A stretch of DNA of 64,000 bases from Candidatus Sericytochromatia bacterium (GTDB lineage Bacteria; Cyanobacteriota; Sericytochromatia; S15B-MN24; UBA4093), in NCBI GenBank assembly GCA_036676985.1, contig JAKFBU010000076.1, forward strand, positions 32,001-96,000, given 5' to 3'. Positions within the stretch are counted from its first letter, which is position 1, and every line of letters starts with the position of its first letter. Position numbers and translations under genes: made by a program. This document shows positions 34,698-64,000 of the stretch, piece by piece. The notes below the pieces were generated by a model. It did not search any database and was not told the origin of the DNA. It saw only the letters and a program-made list of their open reading frames with translations.

Positions 34698-37600
34698 ATG
34701 GTCGCCAGCGACGTCATCGAGCGGCTGATTGCCGAGATCAGCGAGATCTCGGTCTTCTCCATGCTCTCCCGACCGCAGATCCAGGCCCTGCTCGACCACC
34801 TCACGATCGTGCCCCATGCCTTCGGCGACGAGGTGTGCGCGGAGGGCCAGGCGGCCGACACCCTCTACCTGGTCGTCAAGGGCTCGCTCAAGCAGTTCTC
34901 CGTCGCCGGCGGGGAAGAACGGACCGTCGGCGAGGTGCGGCGCGGCCAGACGGCCAACCTCCGCTCGGTGCTCGTCGACGGCATCAACGTCTGCGGTCTG
35001 CGGGCCGCCGAGGACACCTCGCTGATCCAGGTCCCCGCCGGGGTCTTCCTGGAGACCCTGGACCAGGATCCCATGCTGCGGCGCTACCTCGAGCGCCTTA
35101 CCATCGAGCGATCGCTCCAGAAGTTCCGTCGCCTGCTCCAGGCCAACGACATCCCCTTTCCCGTCGTCAAGGAGCTGATCGCCTCGCTCGAGGAGCAACG
35201 GACGAGCGCCGGAGAGGTCATCGTCGCCCAGGGATCCGTCCCGGACGGCTTCTACATCGTCCGGAGCGGCCGCTGCCGGATCTCGGTCGAGACCAGCGCC
35301 GACCACGAGCAGCGGGTGGGCCTGTACGAGGAAGGCCAATTCTTCGGTACCGAGTGCCTGCTCGAGCGCCTGCAGGCCCTGCAGACGGTCACGGCCGACC
35401 GCGACACCACCCTCTACCGCCTGCACCCGGACATCTTCCGCAAGAACGCCGTCGAGGCCCCCGTCCTGCTCAAGCTCTTCCAGCGCAAGGAGCTCATGCG
35501 CTCCCGCGAAGGTGGAGGCGAGGCCACGGCCACCAGCGAGCAGCTCCTGGAGCGCTGGATCCAGCAGGGCGGCGCTTCGGAGTCGGGTGACTCGGCGAGC
35601 CTCGTCGAGGCCGTTCTCGGGCGCATGGACGAGCTGGCGGAGGCGGCCGAGGCCCCCGCACCACTTGCGGCCCCGGAGCCTGAAGGCGCCGCTTCGCCCG
35701 AGCCCGCAGCCCCCCAGCGGCGGGCTCGGCGGAGGACCCGCTCTCGCCCGGATCCGCAGCTCGAGTACGAGCGTCAGCAGGCCCGCAAGAAGCGCTACGT
35801 CCACGTTCGCCAGCGGGACGAGATGGACTGCGGGGCGGCATGTCTGACGATGATCGCGCAGTACCACGGGCAGGAGCTGAGCCTGCGCTACTTCCGCGAT
35901 GCCGCCCACGTCTCGCGGGAGGGGACCTCGCTCCTGGCGCTCGCCGGGGCGGCCGAGCAGGCGGGCTTCACGACCAAGGGCGTGCGCCTTGCTGCCAGCG
36001 CCCTGCACAAGGTGCCCCTGCCGGCCGTCGCCCACTTCGGCTACCACTTCGTGGTCCTCTACGCCGTCGACGCCAAGGGCGTCACCATCGCCGATCCGGC
36101 CAAGACGATCGAGCACCTGACGTTCGAGGAGCTCGAGCAGCGCTGGGATGGCATCCTGCTGCTGCTCGAGCCGACGCCGCGCCTCTACGCCCACCGCCCG
36201 GAGAAGCGGTCCACGTACGGACGCTACCTCGCCATCGTGCGGCCCTACATGGGCCTGGTGCGCGACGCCTTCCTCGCCTCCTTCCTGCTCAGCCTGCTGG
36301 CGCTCTCGGTGCCGCTCTTCAGCCAGGTCATCCTCGACAAGGTCGTGGTGCACCAGTCCAGGGATCTGCTCAACCTCATCGGGCTGGGCATGCTGGTGGC
36401 GGTCGTGTTCCAGATGCTCGCCGAGGCGAGCCGCACCTACCTGGTCGGCTACGTGTCCATGAAGCTGGACGTGGCCCTGTCCAAGTACTTCTACCGCCAC
36501 GTCCTGCGCCTGCCGATGCGGTTCTTCGCCAATCACCGGGTCGGCGACATCACCACGCGCATGGGGGAGGTGGAGGGGATCCGCACGTTCCTGACCCAGG
36601 GGGCCGTGGGCACGGTCCTCGACGCGGTCATGCTGGTCCTCTACGTCGGCATCCTCGCCTACTACGACTGGCGGCTGCTCCTCCTGGTCGTGGGCTTCGC
36701 CGGCCCCCTCTTCCTCCTGGTCCGCCTCCTCACCCCCAGGCTCCAGAGCACCTACCTGCGCATGGCCGAGCAGCAGGGACTGGCCTCCTCCCGCCTGGTC
36801 GAGCAGGTCTCCGCGATCGGCGTCATCAAGTCCCTGGGCGCGGAGGACATCGCGCGCTGGCGGTGGGAAAAGGCGTTCGAGGGCGTGGCCCGCATGGAGT
36901 TCAAGCTGATCAAGCTGGGGCTCGTCATGACCACGGCGGGGCACGGGCTGATGCAGGTCGGCAACCTGGCCGTCCTGTACGTCGGGGCCCAGATGGTCCT
37001 CGCGGGCACCCTCTCGGTGGGTCAGCTCATCGCGCTGGTCTCGATCTTCGGCTCGATCATGCAGCCGGTCTTCCGCATCACCTCGCAATGGAGCGAGTTC
37101 CAGGAGCTCAAGGTGCGGCTGCAGCGCCTGGATGACGTCTTCGACACCCCGCCCGAGAGCGGCCCGCGCCGCTCGCCGATCCGGGCCTCGGTCCTCAAGG
37201 GCCATGTGCGCTTCGAGAACGTCTCCTTCTCCTACCAGGGTTCGAGCGGCCCCATGGTCCTCAAGGACCTCAGCATGGAGGTCTTCCCCGGCCAGCTGAT
37301 CGCCGTGGTGGGTCGCAGCGGCTCCGGCAAGACCACCCTCGCTCAGCTCGTCAACCGCCTCTTCGATCCGAGCGACGGGCGCATCCTCCTGGACGGCTTC
37401 GACGCGAAGGAGATCCCGCTTTCCCTGTTACGGCGCCACGTCGGCATCGTCATGCAGGACAGCACCCTCTTCAGCGGGTCGATCCTCGAGAACATCGCCT
37501 ACGGAGACGACGACCCCGATCTCGCGCGCGTCATCGAGGCCGCCACGCTCGCCAACGCCCATGGCTTCATCGTCAAGCTGCCGTCCGGCTACGGCACCCA

Positions 37601-55332: not shown

Positions 55333-56416
55333 TATCCGCGTCCTGGTCGTCGACGACCACGAGGACAACCTCGCCCTGCTCAAGCTGATCCTGGAGGCTC
55401 GCTCGCTCGGCTACATCGGCGCCTCGGACGGCTACCAGGGCCTCGAGCTGGCCAAGACGGAGCGGCCCGACCTCATCCTCCTGGACCTCGAGATGCCCGG
55501 CATGGACGGCTTCACGATGCTCGAGGCCCTCAAGGCCAACGGCCTCACCCGCCACATCCCCGTCATCATCCTCACGGCGACCTACCTGGAGCCCAAGAGC
55601 GTCGAGCGCGGCCTCTCCCTGGGCGCGGACGAATACCTCACCAAGCCCATCAACCCCGAGGAGCTGCTGGTCCGGATCCGCTCGGTGATCCGGGTGCGCA
55701 AGGCGGAGAAGGAGCTCAACCAGCTGCGCAAGGACTTCACGTCCATGCTCGTCCATGACCTGCGATCGCCCCTCGAAGGCGTCGGCATCGCCCTCAACCT
55801 CGTCCTGACCCAGGAGCTGCCCGAGAAGGACGCCAAGCAGCTGGTGGGCATGGCGCGCGACCAGATCCTCGACCTGTCTCACCTGGTGGGCGACCTTCTG
55901 GAGCTGCACCGCGCCGAGGCCGGCATGACGGTGGTGACCGAGGCCATGAACCCGCACTACCTGATCGCGGACGTGACGAACGAGTGCGAGCTGGTGGCCA
56001 AGGATCGGGACCTGACGCTAAGGTGCGAGGCGCCCGACGCCATGCCGCACATCCTGGGCGATCGCCGCATCCTCAAGCGCGTGCTCGTCAACCTGGTCTC
56101 CAACGCCCTCAAGTTCACGGTCCAGGGCGAGGTCGTCATCCGGGTCTCCCCGCAGGACGCCTTTCTGCGCCTCGAGGTGCAGGACACGGGCCCGGGCATC
56201 CCGCCCGAGGAGCTGGATCGGCTCTTCGACAAGTACTTCCACATCAAGCGCCGCAAGGAGAAGCCCGAGCACGGCTTCGGCCTGGGGCTGGCCTTCTGCA
56301 AGGCCGCCATCGAGGAGCACGGCGGCCGGATCGGCGTGGCAAGCGAGCTCGGCCAGGGTTCGACCTTCTGGATCGAGGTCCCGCTCGCCCAGTCGGAAGT
56401 CTCGGTCGCGAGCTAG
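55319..56416 (+). CDS. Hybrid receiver-histidine kinase
   Basis: VLVVDD, LLDLEMP, TKP; VHDLRSPL, NLVSNA, DTGPGI, GFGLGL; GAGGAGG RBS. Confidence 0.92.
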   Translation: MSAPDIRVLVVDDHEDNLALLKLILEARSLGYIGASDGYQGLELAKTERPDLILLDLEMPGMDGFTMLEALKANGLTRHIPVIILTATYLEPKSVERGLSLGADEYLTKPINPEELLVRIRSVIRVRKAEKELNQLRKDFTSMLVHDLRSPLEGVGIALNLVLTQELPEKDAKQLVGMARDQILDLSHLVGDLLELHRAEAGMTVVTEAMNPHYLIADVTNECELVAKDRDLTLRCEAPDAMPHILGDRRILKRVLVNLVSNALKFTVQGEVVIRVSPQDAFLRLEVQDTGPGIPPEELDRLFDKYFHIKRRKEKPEHGFGLGLAFCKAAIEEHGGRIGVASELGQGSTFWIEVPLAQSEVSVAS

Positions 56417-56994
56417 CCTATCCCATTGAACAATCGCTCTTTCAGAGCGACGGCTTCACCGCGCGTACGTATATTGGCTTTCTTGTAGATATGCTTGATA
56501 TGCGAACGCACGGTTTCATCACCGACAACCAAAGTTGCGGCAATTTCTCGCGTCGATAGGTGTATCAAGGACAGCACGCGCAGTTCGGTGAGGCTAAGGC
56601 CGCTTTTCAGTTCATCATTGGCCCGTCTGCAGACTCTATGAGCGATCTCTTCCAGACAAGTCTCAACAAGTGCCATGTCGGATAGGGGGAGATGGCAATT
56701 TGGCATGCATGCAACGACCATTACCCCAAATTCCCTGCCGTCCAATGTAATTGGGAAGGTGCAAGAGGTGGAGCGATTACGCTCTTCTAGTCTGCACTCG
56801 CCAACGAGCAATCGAGGGCTATATAATTCTATATAAATATTGGTTGCGTTAAGCAGTTGATCAAGGAGATCGTGAACAAAGTTCAGCAAGTCTGGAATGG
56901 ACGGCTGATTGGAGAGGCGCCTTGCAAGGGCGGCCGCGAATCGAAAGGAGCCAACACTACATAACGAGGCGGAAGTGGACGTGGTGTTCACCAT
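56413..56994 (-). CDS. LuxR-family HTH regulator with GAF-like N-terminus
   Basis: LSLTELRVL...STREIAATLVVGDETVRSHIKHIYKK; start uncertain. Confidence 0.8.
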   Translation of the reverse strand: MVNTTSTSASLCSVGSFRFAAALARRLSNQPSIPDLLNFVHDLLDQLLNATNIYIELYSPRLLVGECRLEERNRSTSCTFPITLDGREFGVMVVACMPNCHLPLSDMALVETCLEEIAHRVCRRANDELKSGLSLTELRVLSLIHLSTREIAATLVVGDETVRSHIKHIYKKANIRTRGEAVALKERLFNGIG

Positions 56995-57133
56995 TTATTA
57001 TTCACCCGAAATTCACCCTTGCTTTATGGATGGCTCAACAATACTATCACAATCGTGCGCACTATTATGTCAGTAAATCGTGCTTATTATTCACATCCGT
57101 CGACATTTGCATGTCGAACAAGCAGGAGGATAC

Positions 57134-57805
57134 ATGCGCGTTCAAACTTTGGGGCTTACGTCGTTGGCCCTAGTAACTGTTGTGCTCAATGCCGGACAAG
57201 CATATGCCGATATCTGGAATGGTCTCAAAACCCACAGTATTCGTGGAACTTCCGTTAGGGTTACGACGACCGTTCCTGACGGCAATGCCCAGGGCGTCAT
57301 TGATTGGTGGGGTGGGCGTAACTACTACTATGTTCAGATCGGTGGAGGATCGATAGGCTTCCAGTACGGCCTAACTGAGGGTAAGAACGTAGGAAACTAC
57401 TTCCGGGAGTTTTTCTACAGCAAGATTGATGCGAATACAGGTCAGGGTGAATATAAGGCAATAACGGGAACGCCTGGACCTCAAACGGAGATCGGTCTGC
57501 AGATTCATTATGCAGGAAATGGGAACTGGTATGGTCTAACCCCTGGCTATTGCCAGTCCCCGACTATTGCCGTCGGTGTGTCGGAGTTCGATCGGGCCGG
57601 AACCTACGTGAAGGCAGCCCGCTCAAGGATCGCGGTGGATGACACCACTTACAAGCGATTCTGGAACTTTAATTACGACGATATCGTTGCTGGTGCCAAC
57701 CGTTCAGCTCAGTATTCCCAGCGGGATTCAAACTACCTCAGCAAGAGTGCGATTGATGGAGGCCTTTACAGCTATGCTCGTTTCGGCCTGTATGCGTGGG
57801 AATAA
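57134..57805 (+). CDS. Secreted hypothetical protein, Gly/Tyr-rich and beta-rich
   Basis: AGGAGGA RBS; signal peptide ending AYA. Confidence 0.75.
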   Translation: MRVQTLGLTSLALVTVVLNAGQAYADIWNGLKTHSIRGTSVRVTTTVPDGNAQGVIDWWGGRNYYYVQIGGGSIGFQYGLTEGKNVGNYFREFFYSKIDANTGQGEYKAITGTPGPQTEIGLQIHYAGNGNWYGLTPGYCQSPTIAVGVSEFDRAGTYVKAARSRIAVDDTTYKRFWNFNYDDIVAGANRSAQYSQRDSNYLSKSAIDGGLYSYARFGLYAWE

Positions 57806-57818
57806 GGAGGGAATTCGG

Positions 57819-58211
57819 ATGAAAAAGCTTTTTCTGTTGGGTTTGATCCCTCTCTCTCTCGTCGGCTGTGTCGCGCCCAAAGTCGATTCTGTGTCTTCGG
57901 TACAAGCGTCTCAGAGTCAGGCGGCTACGCCACTCGATCAGGCTCGAGGCCTTTTCGGTAACTCCAACATATCGAGTGCGACCGTAGTCGAAGATGTTTC
58001 AACTCTCCACGGTTCGCGGGCAATTCAATCCGCTGGCGAAATCGATGGTGACAAGGTCGTTGCCGTCCGCCTTGAGGGGGATTTGGAATGGCCGCTTCCA
58101 TATGACAAGAATGACCTCCGAGGCGAGGTCCGCGGTAAATATGCGCTCATTTTAATCGATCGAGAGACTAAGCGATTTACGTATGTCAAAATGAGCAGAG
58201 AAGCCCTCTAG
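57819..58211 (+). CDS. Hypothetical lipoprotein
   Basis: AAGGAGG RBS; MKKLFLLGLIPLSLVGC lipobox. Confidence 0.75.
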   Translation: MKKLFLLGLIPLSLVGCVAPKVDSVSSVQASQSQAATPLDQARGLFGNSNISSATVVEDVSTLHGSRAIQSAGEIDGDKVVAVRLEGDLEWPLPYDKNDLRGEVRGKYALILIDRETKRFTYVKMSREAL

Positions 58212-58370
58212 CAGGAAGCTCGAGCGGAATTATGAAGCCCGCTTGTCCCTCGGATTTCGGCATGAGGGCTGATATTCGATCAAACGGGCTTCAAGCCTTG
58301 TTGCGGTATTTACAATGGTGGGCCGGTCAGGGCTCTGGTGTCGGCCCCACAATCACCGGAAAGGACATGT

Positions 58371-58787
58371 ATGAAGCGCCTTGCGACTCTGGTGAGCCTG
58401 TTAATCAGCGCCTGCTCATTGCCTGGCTCCGCGTCATTTGACACCTATATGTTCAATTACGACCTTAGTCCCTCGAAGCCTAGCTTCACTGATGCGGTTA
58501 CCGTCAAGCTTCAGAAGCTCCCAAAGTCTCGTTTCGAGACTAAGCTTTTGATCATAAAACTCGATGCCGCGCGGTCCCCACATTCTGCCCAAACGCATGA
58601 AATCGATTTTGACACGTTTGTAACCAACGCGGAGAACTCGACGCACGACGTCCGGATCGACCTTTCCTCCACCTATTCGGATTCTAACAACCAGTCGGTC
58701 AAGGCTGGCGCCAATGACTCGGTTGCGTTGCGCGTTCTAATGGTTGATGGACGTCCGAGAGGACAGGAAATCGGCATCTATCAATAG
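58371..58787 (+). CDS. Hypothetical lipoprotein
   Basis: AAGGA RBS; MKRLATLVSLLISAC lipobox. Confidence 0.65.
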   Translation: MKRLATLVSLLISACSLPGSASFDTYMFNYDLSPSKPSFTDAVTVKLQKLPKSRFETKLLIIKLDAARSPHSAQTHEIDFDTFVTNAENSTHDVRIDLSSTYSDSNNQSVKAGANDSVALRVLMVDGRPRGQEIGIYQ

Positions 58788-58926
58788 CTGGCGCAAGAAG
58801 CTCGACGCAGAGGCCGCCCTCTGGGCGAGCGGGCGCTACCTCATTGGTCTTTTCTAATTCCTGCCTCGCTGGTTAGAATGGCGGGGGCTCGGTGCGAGCC
58901 CGCCGATCGACCCACCCCGAGGCCGT

Positions 58927-61900
58927 ATGCTCTCCATCCTCTCGACCGCCGCCAGCTACGTCCCCGGGCTCATGGCCCGGCGCTGGCTCCAGGAGCCCGC
59001 GTCCTTCGATCGTCCCGACCACGATCGCATCGAGGCCGCCCTCCTGTTCGCGGACCTCTCGGGCTTCACGATCCTGGCCGAGCGCCAGGCACGGGCAGGA
59101 GCCGCCGGCACCGAGGTCCTCACGCGCATGCTCAACGCGGTCTTCGGGCCGCTCATCGAGACGGTGAGCGCCCATGGCGGCGACGTGGTCAAGTTCGCGG
59201 GCGACGCCCTGCTCGCCGTGTGGCCGGTGGCGGCCGCGGATCCCGCTCGGGCGACCCTGCGCGCGGCTCAGGCGGGCCTCGCCATCCAGCGCTTGCTCCA
59301 GGAGGCGGCCGCGCAGGGCGACGCGCCGCTCTCCCTGCGGGTCGGCATCGGGGCAGGCGAGGTCGAGGCCTACCAGATCGGGGGCCTGAACGGCGAATGG
59401 GAGACCTACCTCGCCGGAGACGTCTTGCTCGCGACGGGCCGCGCCGAACATGCCGCCGCTCCCGGTCAGGTCGTCCTCACGCCTACGGCCTGGGAGCACG
59501 TTCGCGAACAGGCGGTGGGCTCGCCGCTGTCCGAGGGTGGGGTCCTGCTCGAGTCCTTGCTCGACTCTCGTGCGCCCGAAGCGGAGCCACCGGCCGATCT
59601 GCCGCCGGAGGCCGAAAAGGCGCTCTTGAGTCGCGTTCCCCGTGCCGTCCGGGCGCGTCTGGTGGCCGGACAGACCGACTGGCTCGCCGAGCTGCGCCAG
59701 ATCACGGTGGTCTTCGCCAACATCCCCGAGCTGGGGCGCGCTCCGTCCCTGGACCGGGCGCAGGAGGTCATGCGTGCCCTCCAGCACGCCGTCGATCGCT
59801 TCGAGGGCAGCATCAACAAGCTGAGCGTCGACGAGAAGGGCGTCTCCCTGCTCGCGGCCTTCGGCCTCCCGCCGCGTTCTCACGAGGACGACCCCGTGCG
59901 GGCCGTACAGGCGGCCCTTTCGCTGCGCGCGAGGCTCCAGGAGCTAGGCGTCGAGGTCTCCGTCGGCGTGGCGAGCGGCCGGGTCTTCTGCGGCGAGATC
60001 GGCAACGACCGCCGCCGGGAGTACACCGTCATCGGGGACACGGTGAACCTCGCCGCCCGCCTGATGCAGCAGGCACAGGACGACCTCTGGTGCGACGCTT
60101 CGACCTTCGAGGCGACCCAGGACCGCATCCGTTACGAGGTGGTGGCCCCCGTCCAGGCCAAGGGCAAGACGGGATTCTTGAGCGTCTTTCGCCCGCAGGT
60201 CGAGCTCAAGCCGGCCGCCGCTGCGACGTCTGAGCTCATCGGCCGCCATGCGGAGAAGGGGCAGCTGCGCGCGGCCTTGCGGCAGCTCACGGAGTTCGGG
60301 GCGGGCGGCGTGCTCGTCCTGGAGGGCGAGGCGGGCCTCGGCAAGTCGCGGCTTCTGGGCTACGCGGTGGACGAGGCCCGGGCCCTGGGCCTCCGGTGCC
60401 TGCAGGGCTCCGGGGAGGCCATCGAGCGCTCCACGCCCTACCATGCATGGCGCCCCATCTTCCACCAGCTCCTCTCGCCCGACGGCGAAGGCGATCCCGA
60501 CCTGCTGGTGCAGGCCATCGTCAAGGCCCTCGCGGACGAGCCGGAGCTCTTGCGCCTCGCGCCCTTGCTGGGCACGGTCCTGCCCTTGAACCTGCCGGAC
60601 AACGTGGTGACCGAGCAGATGGTCGGCCAGGTGCGGGCGGACAACACCAACGACGTGCTCCTGCGCCTCCTGCGCTCGGCGGCTCCCCTCGTGATCGCCC
60701 TGGAGGACTTCCACTGGCTCGACACGGCGTCGTGGACCCTCCTGCGGACGTTGTGCCTGCGAGGGCTTCCGATTCTCCTGGTGACGACCAGCCGCCCCCT
60801 GAGCGATCCGCAGCTTAGCGAGCTGCGCCAGATCCTGGAATTGCCGGGCGTCCAGCGGATGACCCTCGAGGCCATGCCCATCGCCGAGGCCCTGGAGCTG
60901 GTATGCCGACAGCTGGGGGTCCGGAGCCTGCCCGAGCCCGTGGCGGAGCTCATCCGCACCAAGGCCGAAGGGCACCCCTTCTTCAGCGAGGAGCTCGCCC
61001 TGGCGCTCCGGGACGCGGGCTTCATCCGGATCGAGGGCGGGGAGTGCGTGCTCACGCCCAAGGCGGGAGACCTGAGCGACCTGGACCTGCCCAACACGGT
61101 CGAGGGCCTCATCACCAGCCGCGTGGACCGCCTGCCGCCCTCCCAGCAGCTCTCCTTGAAGGTGGCGAGCGTCATCGGGCGCGTGTTCGCCTACGGCACC
61201 CTGCGCGACATCTACCCCATCGACGCCGACCGCCCGCACCTCATGGCCCACCTGCAGTCCATGGAAGAGCTGGACCTCACGCTCCTGGCGGTGCAGGAGC
61301 CGGACTCCATCTACGTCTTCAAGCACATCATCACCCAGGAGGTCGTCTACAACCTGCTCCTCTTCGCCCAGCGGGAGCAGCTGCACCGCGCGGTGGCCGT
61401 GTGGTACGAGAACGCGCACCAGGGGAACCTCGCCCCCTTCTACCCGCTCCTGGCTCACCACTGGGAGCAGGTCGGCGAGGTCGAGAAGGCCACGGCCTAT
61501 CTCGAGAAGTCCGGGGTGCAGGCGCTGCGGACGGGCGCCTACCGGGAGGCCATCGGCTTCTTCGAGAAGGCGCTCGCCAAGGACTCGTCGGGCGATCGCC
61601 GGCGCCGCGGCTACTGGGAGCACAGCCTCGGGGAGGCCCACCTGGGCCTGGGGCGCCTTGAGGACGCCGCCCGGCACGTGCGCCGGGCCATGGTCCTTCA
61701 GGACGTCCCGGCGCCCGAGGGCAAGCTCGCCATGGGCCTCGAGATCGTCGGGCTGCTGCTCGACGAGGTGCGTCATTACCGGAGCAACGAGTTGCCCATC
61801 CCCGGGTCGGCCGAGCGCGATCGCCTCCTGGAGCAGGCGCGCCTCTACCGCTCGCTCGGCATGGTCCACTACTACGGCAACGACACCCTGGGCTCCATCC

Positions 61901-62973
61901 ACTCCATCCTCAAGTCCAAGAGTCTCGCCTCGAAGGCCGGTCCTTCGGCGGAGCTCGCCGTTGCGACGGGCGGGCTCGCCATCGCAGCAGGCCTGGTGCC
62001 GGCCCATGGCCTGGCCGCGGCCTACGTCGAGAAGGCCCTCCAGGTCGTCGAAGGGGTCGAGGACCTGAACCTCAGGGCCCAGACCCTCATCCGGGCGAGC
62101 CTCAGCCAGGTATCGGTCGGGCGCTGGGAGAACGTGCGCCGCATCGCCGAGGAGGCGGTGTCCATCTGCGAGCGACTGGGCGATCGCCGCCAGTTCGGCG
62201 AGAGCATCGTCCAGCTCGCCCTCGCCTACCGCTACCCGGGCGATTTCCGGGCAGCCCAGGACAAGTACCAGCGCCTTTACGACGCGGCCTCGAGCTTCGG
62301 CAACGACCACCACCGCAGCTGGGCGCTCGACGGTCAGGCCATCATGCGGATCCGCGAGGGCGAGTTCGAGACGGCCGAGCGCCTGCTCGCCGAGGCGGCG
62401 GCCCTCACGGCGAGCAACCCGGACCCCACCGAGCGCACGAACCACCTGAGCCAGGAGGCCCTCCTGCACCTGCGCCGGGGCAAGGTCGCCGAGGCCTGGC
62501 AGGCGGCGAGGGAGGCCGCGGGGATGATCGCCCAGTCCCCGCCGTCGGCGGTCTATGCCATCGACGGCGTGGCCACGGTCGTCGAAGTCTTCCTCAGTCT
62601 GCGGGAGGACCATGGCGTCGAGCTGGCCCTTCCGGCGCGCGAGGTCGAGCGGACGATCCGCCAGTCCCTGCGGGCCCTGCACGCGTTCTCCAAGCCCTTC
62701 CCCATCGCCCAGCCCCGCACCTGGCTCTACCAGGGCTGGTACGAGTGGCTCATGGGCAACCGCTCCAAGGCGGAGCGGGCCTGGCTCAAGGCCCAGGCGG
62801 CGGCCGAGCGTCTCGACATGCGCTTCGAGGCGGGGCTCGTCCAGCTGGAGCGTGCCCGGCAAGGGCTTGCGAGCCAGGCGGACATGGACCGGGGGATCGA
62901 CCTCCTGGAGCGGGTGGGAGCGACCCATGAGGCGCTCAGGTTGCGAGCTCTGAGGGATCGCACCGCCCCCTAG
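58927..62973 (+). CDS. Soluble-adenylyl-cyclase-like protein: two class III cyclase domains, P-loop (STAND) ATPase, TPR
   Basis: FADLSGFT, GDVVKFAGDALL, INKLSVDEKG, EYTVIGDTVNLAARL, GEAGLGKS, LEDFHW, helical repeats. Confidence 0.92.
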   Translation: MLSILSTAASYVPGLMARRWLQEPASFDRPDHDRIEAALLFADLSGFTILAERQARAGAAGTEVLTRMLNAVFGPLIETVSAHGGDVVKFAGDALLAVWPVAAADPARATLRAAQAGLAIQRLLQEAAAQGDAPLSLRVGIGAGEVEAYQIGGLNGEWETYLAGDVLLATGRAEHAAAPGQVVLTPTAWEHVREQAVGSPLSEGGVLLESLLDSRAPEAEPPADLPPEAEKALLSRVPRAVRARLVAGQTDWLAELRQITVVFANIPELGRAPSLDRAQEVMRALQHAVDRFEGSINKLSVDEKGVSLLAAFGLPPRSHEDDPVRAVQAALSLRARLQELGVEVSVGVASGRVFCGEIGNDRRREYTVIGDTVNLAARLMQQAQDDLWCDASTFEATQDRIRYEVVAPVQAKGKTGFLSVFRPQVELKPAAAATSELIGRHAEKGQLRAALRQLTEFGAGGVLVLEGEAGLGKSRLLGYAVDEARALGLRCLQGSGEAIERSTPYHAWRPIFHQLLSPDGEGDPDLLVQAIVKALADEPELLRLAPLLGTVLPLNLPDNVVTEQMVGQVRADNTNDVLLRLLRSAAPLVIALEDFHWLDTASWTLLRTLCLRGLPILLVTTSRPLSDPQLSELRQILELPGVQRMTLEAMPIAEALELVCRQLGVRSLPEPVAELIRTKAEGHPFFSEELALALRDAGFIRIEGGECVLTPKAGDLSDLDLPNTVEGLITSRVDRLPPSQQLSLKVASVIGRVFAYGTLRDIYPIDADRPHLMAHLQSMEELDLTLLAVQEPDSIYVFKHIITQEVVYNLLLFAQREQLHRAVAVWYENAHQGNLAPFYPLLAHHWEQVGEVEKATAYLEKSGVQALRTGAYREAIGFFEKALAKDSSGDRRRRGYWEHSLGEAHLGLGRLEDAARHVRRAMVLQDVPAPEGKLAMGLEIVGLLLDEVRHYRSNELPIPGSAERDRLLEQARLYRSLGMVHYYGNDTLGSIHSILKSKSLASKAGPSAELAVATGGLAIAAGLVPAHGLAAAYVEKALQVVEGVEDLNLRAQTLIRASLSQVSVGRWENVRRIAEEAVSICERLGDRRQFGESIVQLALAYRYPGDFRAAQDKYQRLYDAASSFGNDHHRSWALDGQAIMRIREGEFETAERLLAEAAALTASNPDPTERTNHLSQEALLHLRRGKVAEAWQAAREAAGMIAQSPPSAVYAIDGVATVVEVFLSLREDHGVELALPAREVERTIRQSLRALHAFSKPFPIAQPRTWLYQGWYEWLMGNRSKAERAWLKAQAAAERLDMRFEAGLVQLERARQGLASQADMDRGIDLLERVGATHEALRLRALRDRTAP

Positions 62974-63054
62974 CGGCCTCTCGCCAGGACCTAGCTGCCG
63001 CCTGTGCGGCGGCCGGACGTGTTAAGATTAACGTTTGCTAGATCCGAGGGACGC

Positions 63055-64000
63055 ATGACCTTTATCGAACTGATTCGCAGCAATCTGATCTCCCCCTTCG
63101 TGCTGGCCTTCATGCTGGGCGGGATCGCCACCGTCGTGAAGAGCGACCTGGAGTTTCCCGAGCAGGTTTACGCCGCCCTGTCGATCTACCTCCTCTTGGC
63201 GATCGGCATGAAGGGCGGCGTGGAGCTCTCCTCCACGCCGCTCTCGGTGATCTGGGCGCCGGCCCTGGCGACCCTGGCGCTGGGCATCTGCATCCCCATC
63301 TGGTGCTACTTCATCCTGCGCAAGTTCGGCAAGTTCGACAACGCCAACGCGGCGGCGATCGCGGCCCACTACGGGTCGGTCTCGGCCGTGACCTTCACGG
63401 CGACCATGACCTTCCTCGATCTGGTGAACGTGCCCTTCGAGGGCTTCATGCCGACGCTGGTGGCCATCCTGGAGGTGCCCGCCATCATCGTGGCCCTGCT
63501 CATCGCGCGCATGAAGGAGGAGGACTCCAAGGCCTCCTGGGGGCCGGTGTTGCACGAGGTGATCACGGGCAAGAGCATTCTCTTGATGGTCGGCGGGGTG
63601 ATCATCGGCTTGCTGGTCGGCCACCAGGGTCTCGAGAGCGTGGCTCCGGTCTTCGTGGATCCCTTCAAGGGCGTGCTGATGCTCTTCCTGTTGGAGCTCG
63701 GCATGGTCACGGGCCACCGGATCCGGGATCTGGGCCGGGCCGGCTGGTTCCTGGTGGGCTTCGGCGTCGTCATGCCCATCCTGCACGGGGTGATCGGGGC
63801 GGTCCTGGGCACGATCGTGGGGCTGTCCATGGGCGGCTCGACGGTGCTCGGCGTCATGGCGGCCAGTGCCTCCTACATCGCGGCGCCCGCGGCCGTGCGC
63901 GTGGCCTTGCCCTCGGCCAATCCGGGGTACTACCTGACGGCGACGCTCGCCATCACCTTCCCGTTCAACCTGGCGCTGGGCATCCCGCTGTACTACTTCG
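63055..64000 (+). CDS. sbtA: SbtA-family sodium-dependent bicarbonate transporter (3' truncated; not in ORF track)
   Basis: KSDLEFP, SIYLLLAIGMKGG, HYGSVSAVTF, LEVPAII, FLLELG, SASYIAAPAA, ITFPFN. Confidence 0.92.
   Translation, partial: MTFIELIRSNLISPFVLAFMLGGIATVVKSDLEFPEQVYAALSIYLLLAIGMKGGVELSSTPLSVIWAPALATLALGICIPIWCYFILRKFGKFDNANAAAIAAHYGSVSAVTFTATMTFLDLVNVPFEGFMPTLVAILEVPAIIVALLIARMKEEDSKASWGPVLHEVITGKSILLMVGGVIIGLLVGHQGLESVAPVFVDPFKGVLMLFLLELGMVTGHRIRDLGRAGWFLVGFGVVMPILHGVIGAVLGTIVGLSMGGSTVLGVMAASASYIAAPAAVRVALPSANPGYYLTATLAITFPFNLALGIPLYYF

Follow-up and report, generated by a model that had tools for sequence, protein, structure and literature searches.

Cyclase, transporter and the spacer between them

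We analysed a 64,000-nucleotide stretch of the genome of a Candidatus Sericytochromatia bacterium (GCA_036676985.1, contig JAKFBU010000076.1), which we call the window (G000:C76:32001-96000, where G000 is the host genome). Towards its 3' end, a gene for an enzyme resembling soluble adenylyl cyclase (sAC) is followed by a gene for an SbtA-family transporter (Table 1). A sequence-only reading had proposed that the two genes belong to a compact module linking bicarbonate, cyclic AMP (cAMP), SbtB and SbtA, and its account of the parts, tandem class III cyclase domains followed by a P-loop and TPRs, 81 bp 5' of a co-oriented sbtA, agrees with the coordinates and Pfam domains that we obtain.

Table 1. 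Features of the cyclase-sbtA locus, in window positions unless a contig is named
Feature	Position	Strand	Basis or remark
sAC-like adenylyl cyclase gene, 1348 amino acids	58927..62973	+	one uninterrupted open reading frame; Pfam domains; PDB homology; ortholog in G001
Cyclase domain C1, residues ~37-193	59035..59505	+	six-frame genome search; holds D43, D93, K89, G171/R172
Cyclase domain C2, residues ~257-386	59695..60084	+	six-frame genome search; holds K298, T367, N374, R378
AAA_16 (STAND-type) P-loop NTPase domain, residues 436-612	60232..60762	+	Pfam E 2.5e-17; Walker A GEAGLGKS
Top-scoring TPR stretch, residues ~1094-1160, in C-terminal helical region	62206..62406	+	Pfam TPR_12, TPR_7
Cyclase-sbtA spacer, 81 bp	62974..63054	+	cyclase stop codon ends at 62973; ATG at 63055
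SbtA-family (Sbt_1) transporter gene, short type, 325 amino acids full length	63055..64000, on to G000:C76:96032	+	Pfam Sbt_1
Left part of 2.6-kb block G000:C76:94923-97548 (cyclase 3' tip, sbtA, repeats, convergent SDR gene)	62923..64000		41 bp in G001
2.5-kb low-GC block immediately 5' of the cyclase	56389..58914		180 bp in G001

The cyclase contains two Guanylate_cyc stretches (E 9.1e-24), three TPR_12 stretches and a TPR_7 stretch in Pfam, with its Walker A motif at residues ~466-473, and NCBIfam TIGR03903 matches weakly across the region from C2 to the STAND domain. In a phmmer search against all PDB sequences, the highest-scoring entries are those of the human ADCY10 catalytic domains (4cm2/4clf, E 6e-40), with residues 26-191 aligned to C1 of human sAC and residues 227-397 aligned to C2. 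The chain thus has two cyclase domains homologous to C1 and C2, as in sAC-like pseudo-heterodimers, and the P-loop NTPase and TPR region lie C-terminal of the catalytic domains in the sAC-type order, which upholds the likeness to mammalian sAC that had been drawn from the sequence. The ortholog in a relative from the same genus (G001) is 74% identical. Homologs are present in all 41 genomes searched (G000 included), commonly as more than one full-length copy; G000 itself has 18 cyclase-domain matches, which we count as 16 genes. Homology places the cyclase in a paralog-rich C1-C2-STAND-TPR family of class IIIb that is found throughout the host's class, and the gene is an old resident of the lineage. 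A second full-length C1-C2-STAND-TPR paralog in G000 (G000:C77:95871-99932, 38% identity) carries one in-frame TAG, and is possibly a pseudogene or the product of an assembly error.

To compare individual residues, we numbered equivalences from the printed alignment of the cyclase with human sAC and took their roles from Table 1 of PMC12867704 and from PMC12250328. D43 and D93 correspond to the metal ligands D47 and D99 of human sAC, K298 to K334 (ATP base recognition), T367 to T405 (adenine contact, and the class IIIb Thr), and N374 and R378 to N412 and R416 (product release and alpha-phosphate). A single active site is therefore complete, with two metal Asp in C1 and the Lys, Thr, Asn and Arg in C2. 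These catalytic residues are invariant in 12 of 12 aligned family members, and the enzyme should be catalytically competent. Class IIIb is marked by a Thr in place of the substrate-binding Asp (PMC2613629), and T367, in the motif EYTVIG, is that Thr, as had been suggested. At the bicarbonate site, the earlier claim about the lysine stands: K89, in the motif DVVKFAGDALL, aligns with K95 of human sAC. The column of R176, the 'switch' residue of that site, holds G171 in a gap-free alignment of high posterior probability, and R172 lies one position further on, at the canonical cyclase Arg position. A K89-type Lys is present in 11 of the 12 aligned members, and K89 is a feature of the family as a whole, with nothing peculiar to the G000 copy; the residue at R172 is not constant across this set, and the same-genus ortholog retains it. 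Animal sACs without either K95 or R176 are described as unresponsive to bicarbonate and as sensing pH instead (PMC12867704). Because Lys95 without Arg176 is insensitive in the animal enzymes, the Lys alone is weak evidence for bicarbonate sensing.

The sbtA gene overruns the window by 32 bases, with 315 amino acids encoded inside it. These 315 residues match Sbt_1 at E 6.4e-119 over profile positions 1-304 of 308, and also match the solved SbtA of Synechocystis (7cye, E 2e-35) in two stretches that align both halves of the protein, so the family named in the sequence-only reading is confirmed. The short-class SbtA proteins of our phylum sample (about 313-333 amino acids) are 39-46% identical to the G000 protein, and the long SbtA1 class is 28-30% identical over full-length matches, with two partial matches that reach 40%.

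GAGGGA precedes the sbtA ATG. A GC hairpin in the spacer lacks a T-run, the spacer folds no better than shuffled sequences (z -0.64), and a scan of 58400-64000, spacer included, found no consensus promoter or terminator; with neither recognised in the spacer, read-through from the cyclase gene into sbtA may occur. An AT-rich perfect palindrome, GTTAAGATTAAC (GTTAA-GA-TTAAC), is located at 63021-63032, 23 bp before the sbtA start, and could be a regulator site. The 4.7-Mb genome contains just two occurrences of its pattern, GTTAANNTTAAC (0.27 would be expected from base composition), too few for a regulon to be inferred. No CRP-type TGTGA-N6-TCACA site was found near or upstream of sbtA. The adjacency itself is real DNA and not a chimera or an assembly artefact, as contigs from two other studies' runs (X7 record 20 and X9 record 29) cross the cyclase-sbtA junction in strains about 97% identical to ours. 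X2 record 5 crosses it likewise, but may derive from the source study. The runs that contain the locus are labelled as soil and groundwater metagenomes, and a metagenome scan with SbtA alone returned one distant locus (41%) and was uninformative.

Downstream, a repeat-bearing spacer of 326 bp separates sbtA from an SDR gene in convergent orientation. The sbtB gene that had been looked for beyond position 64000 did not turn up: these 326 bp hold no PII-like open reading frame, and a profile made from SbtA-linked PII-like genes, run over the G000 genome with all filters off, scored at best E 0.82. A six-frame search of the whole genome with Pfam P-II gave two weak matches only (best 29.9 bits), and no canonical PII (GlnB/GlnK) was found in this genome, whose completeness is estimated at 100% and contamination at 5.09%. 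One P-II match is a 113-amino-acid gene beside a DUF1538 membrane protein gene (L004 295-636, minus strand), the other a 124-amino-acid gene before a Na/H exchanger gene (L005 1483-1857, plus strand), and the two may represent PII-like regulator/transporter pairs of other kinds. The RuBisCO large subunit was not found anywhere in the genome, a result that agrees with the lack of carbon-fixation genes noted earlier for the window. Photo_RC was likewise not found in G000. In a smaller sample of the phylum, Photo_RC was found in 39 of 121 genomes, all 39 of them in families outside the host's class; the counts were 0 of 40 in the host's class (f1-f7) and 0 of 40 in family f9, a gene pattern that points to a non-photosynthetic host. 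G000 has 19 cNMP-binding domain matches and one beta-carbonic anhydrase match. Two cNMP-binding domains are found in the window at 34824-35444, in a 1141-amino-acid open frame about 24 kb upstream of the cyclase.

The locus in relatives and SbtA loci elsewhere

By blastn, the contigs of G000 and G001 are collinear through a histidine kinase gene, the cyclase gene (78% DNA identity), a Glycos_transf_3 gene and a cd1 nitrite reductase gene. Collinearity is broken by two blocks present in G000 only, one on each side of the cyclase (Table 1), and G001, which is 87% complete, yielded no sbtA. The 5' block lies between a hybrid histidine kinase gene and the cyclase, and has a GC content of 0.50-0.57 against about 0.70 around it. 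It carries one gene of LuxR type on the minus strand (56413-56994) together with three open reading frames without a Pfam family, and is probably a small island. Towards the right edge of the 3' block, palindrome-rich interspersed repeats lie on either side of the SDR gene (L003 6118-6318 and 7324-7524, or G000:C76:96117-96317 and 97323-97523). The two repeats have 119 and 116 BLAST hits in G000 and show large depth spikes in four metagenome runs. In a contig from run X3, the sbtA stop is joined directly to sequence beyond the SDR gene, suggesting that the SDR gene is a separate indel and that it was gained or lost by a repeat-mediated event.

SbtA turned up in 4 of 40 relatives. We annotated the flanks of the three with a full-length sbtA and set aside the fragmentary matches of G015. 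In G005 and G007, sbtA occupies another site, with an unambiguous P-II gene after it (E 2e-22 and 5e-23), and in G007 a beta-carbonic anhydrase gene lies upstream; in G030, sbtA is followed by a rifampin ADP-ribosyltransferase gene. The annotated flanks in these three genomes include no cyclase.

Further afield, we collected 80 SbtA loci from many other phyla, taking at most 6 kb of flanking DNA on either side; for 65 of these loci, at least 1.3 kb of upstream sequence was available. A PII-like gene adjoins SbtA in 50 of these loci by tblastn, and a cyclase domain in none. Profile searches gave a PII-like gene in 52 of 80 and a cyclase domain within 6 kb in 0 of 80. In a sample of 401 genomes from the host's phylum, many of them single contigs of 1.6-1.7 Mb, Sbt_1 occurs in 151 genomes and in two size classes; together with the Photo_RC counts, this would fit Cyanobacteriota with its non-photosynthetic classes. 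From about 190 matches we picked 40 loci by hand, and thus non-randomly (31 of short type, 9 of long type). A profile hidden Markov model (HMM) placed a PII-like gene near SbtA in 27 of the 40, among them all nine of long type; tblastn had recovered only 11 of 40, as the PII-like genes beside short-type cyanobacterial SbtA are divergent. A cyclase was found within 6 kb of SbtA in one of the 40 and adjacent to it in none. The locus concerned (L121, G315:C40, 1804-7234) comes from a photosynthetic member. Its FHA-GAF-cyclase and its short-type SbtA are encoded on one strand, the cyclase upstream and three genes (isochorismatase, cupin and Coq4) between the two, and the SbtA there has a divergent PII-like gene. 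As a guard against tblastn with the divergent P0001 domains missing canonical cyclases, we ran the cyclase search again using an HMM made from 16 of the 18 cyclase-domain matches in G000, namely the strongest ones, with those of the C77 paralog excluded; the outcome was the same, with only the G000 locus and L121 found. Overall, an adjacent cyclase occurs in 0 of 123 other SbtA-family loci (80 + 40 + 3), and L121 is the sole other locus of those sampled with a cyclase within 6 kb. The conserved cyclase-sbtA synteny that might be expected of a functional module is thus absent, in G001, G005, G007 and G030 as well as in the 80 + 40 further loci, and within this sample the pair recurs neither in relatives nor in other lineages.

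Where SbtB is missing, the neighbours of SbtA include LysR regulators, beta-carbonic anhydrase, Sua5, AccA and response regulator/kinase pairs. In three Flavobacteriaceae loci (L093, L097 and L101), an SbtB-less SbtA homolog directly follows genes for Sua5 (threonylcarbamoyl-AMP synthase) and a DUF6671 protein; a convergent beta-carbonic anhydrase gene comes next in L097 and L101, and a YkuD-type transpeptidase gene takes its place in L093. In L094, an SbtB-less homolog follows AccA. The SbtB-less homologs at the Sua5 and AccA loci have conserved links to bicarbonate-using enzymes. In E. coli, HCO3- transport has been shown for cyanobacterial SbtA2 proteins, which are of the short type (PMC13187645). 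Because of the studies of SbtA1 and SbtA2, and because of the carbonic anhydrase, Sua5 and AccA neighbours of its homologs, we infer that the G000 protein is most likely an HCO3- importer serving carboxylation in a non-photosynthetic host without RuBisCO, and most simply one that feeds the carboxylases of a heterotroph.

On an SbtA tree of 83 rows (L058 was dropped for an internal stop), the G000 protein falls into an unresolved cluster whose other sequences come from Chloroflexota, Myxococcota and Planctomycetota, the nearest being 63-64% identical, and is placed away from the copies of its family-mates. The proteins of G005 and G007 belong to a different starred clade and that of G030 to a Bacteroidota clade. 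The label of having or not having SbtB changes at least nine times on the tree, and many SbtA lineages have lost SbtB or lack it. The sbtA gene of G000 is patchy in distribution and was probably acquired horizontally.

Explanations for the gene pair

We consider it probable, with real room for doubt, that two ordinary genes were recently made neighbours, at strain level, by a lineage-specific insertion, the one encoding a class IIIb cyclase and the other an SbtA that would be independent of SbtB, with no circuit dedicated to the pair. Under this explanation, the cyclase would form an intramolecular C1/C2 pseudo-heterodimer and make cAMP at its one active site (D43, D93, K298, T367, N374 and R378). 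By analogy with other class IIIb enzymes, it would probably be modulated by inorganic carbon or pH, and the P-loop/TPR part may exert further control. The transporter, of short (SbtA2-like) type, would operate without SbtB and was probably acquired horizontally, its gene having landed behind the cyclase in one species only, in a region of indels and repeats, with co-transcription by read-through across the 81-bp spacer as a possible consequence. A dedicated bicarbonate-cAMP-SbtB-SbtA circuit is absent: SbtB is the required cAMP receptor in that scheme, according to PMC10117731, and G000 has none.

Several points weigh against this explanation. That the 3' block is an insertion in G000 and not a deletion in G001 was called by parsimony, without a rooted reconstruction. 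The cyclase and sbtA are co-oriented and 81 bp apart with no recognisable terminator between them, and their junction is preserved in the roughly 97%-identical strains from two other studies. We estimate the chance that some cyclase gene adjoins the single sbtA at about 0.8% (2 x 16 / ~4000 genes), where ~4000 genes is an assumption from genome size and the pair was chosen post hoc from many windows. The prokaryotic class IIIb cyclases examined by 2009, one from Chloroflexus included, all responded to inorganic carbon (PMC2613629), and an anion pocket could be formed from K89 and R172. Finally, the 19 cNMP-binding domain matches are candidates for relaying cAMP without SbtB.

These same features would suit an operon particular to this lineage, in which one transcript covers both genes, the cyclase is a sensor of HCO3-/CO2 (or pH) in the cytoplasm, and its cAMP influences the expression or activity of sbtA through a receptor other than SbtB, CRP-like or otherwise cNMP-binding. 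The shared orientation, the short gap with neither consensus terminator nor promoter, the persistence of the junction in other studies' strains, the class IIIb Thr together with K89, and the stock of cNMP-binding domains all speak for such an operon, as does the finding that cAMP signals high inorganic carbon in cyanobacteria (PMC10117731). Against it, the adjacency is missing from the same-genus relative and from the 123 other SbtA loci, no CRP-type site lies upstream of sbtA, the spacer palindrome occurs just twice in the genome, and the Arg176 column holds Gly. We judge the operon unlikely.

It is also conceivable, though we would give it somewhat less credence, that neither gene has anything to do with inorganic carbon: the cyclase might respond to pH or, by way of its STAND/TPR part, to some other ligand, and a different anion might be the substrate of the Sbt_1 protein. 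Animal sACs without Arg176 behave as pH sensors and not as bicarbonate sensors (PMC12867704), the residue at R172 is variable in the alignment of 12 members, SbtA2 proteins show an apparent dependence on chloride (PMC13187645), and the substrate and ion coupling of non-cyanobacterial homologs appear to have been little studied. Against this, the Sbt_1 homologs beside beta-carbonic anhydrase, Sua5 and AccA point to HCO3-, and the record of inorganic-carbon responses among the class IIIb cyclases mentioned above argues for carbon on the side of the enzyme.

A more speculative extension, which we hold to be doubtful, is that an SbtB-less SbtA was captured behind an sAC-like cyclase and co-transcribed with it to yield an SbtB-independent carbon circuit, in which HCO3- or pH would tune cAMP through a K89/R172 pocket and cAMP would feed back on uptake through cNMP-binding proteins. 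If this were true, the circuit would show a sense-and-import module at an early point of its assembly. The full module of the sequence-only reading, in which the cyclase is activated by bicarbonate and cAMP binds to SbtB, which in turn gates SbtA, draws on the common pairing of SbtA with a PII-like gene (52/80 and 27/40 loci) and on the binding of cAMP by SbtB in cyanobacteria (PMC10117731), but we regard it as very improbable, given that no PII-like open reading frame lies 3' of sbtA, that the best SbtB-type score in a genome estimated to be complete is E 0.82, and that the two weak P-II matches adjoin a DUF1538 gene and a Na/H exchanger gene. Three outcomes had been set in advance as telling against that module, and two of them, a missing sbtB and an unconserved adjacency, are what we found.

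Known systems and neighbouring features

Human sAC has its P-loop at residues 516-523 and putative TPRs between residues 870 and 1098 (PMC3475452). The G000 cyclase shares with it the tandem C1-C2 arrangement, all the catalytic residues, an equivalent of Lys95, and a C-terminal P-loop and TPRs. It differs in being shorter (1348 amino acids) and in having Gly171, followed by Arg172, in the Arg176 column. It shares the class IIIb Thr with bacterial cyclases that respond to inorganic carbon, namely the sAC-like enzyme of Chloroflexus aurantiacus, Anabaena CyaB1, Synechocystis Cya1/Slr1991 and Spirulina CyaC. Of these, CyaB1, Cya1 and CyaC form homodimers of chains with a single cyclase domain and carry sensor domains of other kinds, in contrast to the intramolecular pseudo-heterodimer and STAND/TPR tail of the G000 protein. 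Mycobacterial cyclases of the CHD-AAA-TPR(-LuxR) type, such as Rv0386, combine a single cyclase domain with a STAND-type ATPase, a TPR region and a DNA-binding end; the G000 protein has two cyclase domains and no helix-turn-helix. With the cyanobacterial SbtA-SbtB systems (SbtA1/SbtB1 and SbtA2/SbtB2), the G000 locus has the Sbt_1 family in common. In size and identity the G000 SbtA is nearer to the short class, and it is about 40 residues shorter than SbtA1 in the central cytoplasmic loop. Unlike those systems, G000 has no SbtB, the nearest relatives of its SbtA come from Chloroflexota and other phyla, and the genome lacks RuBisCO and photosystem II genes.

Bicarbonate-activated bacterial sAC homologs have already been published (Kobayashi et al., as cited in PMC11006738 and PMC2613629). 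Bacteria are known to have cyclases of sAC-like architecture, and SbtA families are known both with SbtB and without it; the novelty could have lain in a genomic link that hard-wires a sensor of bicarbonate to an importer of it. In the literature that we searched, the coverage of which is incomplete, we found no description of a cyclase-sbtA gene pair. Since the link is limited to one species-level lineage and comes without SbtB, it cannot serve as comparative evidence for a cAMP-SbtA circuit. What is of interest is that a non-photosynthetic relative of cyanobacteria encodes a good number of sAC-like cyclases as well as an SbtA that has no SbtB and apparently arrived by horizontal transfer. 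Its cyclase would offer a handy bacterial test case for asking whether Lys95 and a shifted Arg are enough for bicarbonate sensing.

Further downstream in G000 lies the cd1 nitrite reductase cluster, with Cytochrom_D1, sirohaem-synthase-like and Glycos_transf_3 genes (L003 8278-11718; L026). The cluster is common to G000 and G001, and the lineage therefore probably denitrifies.

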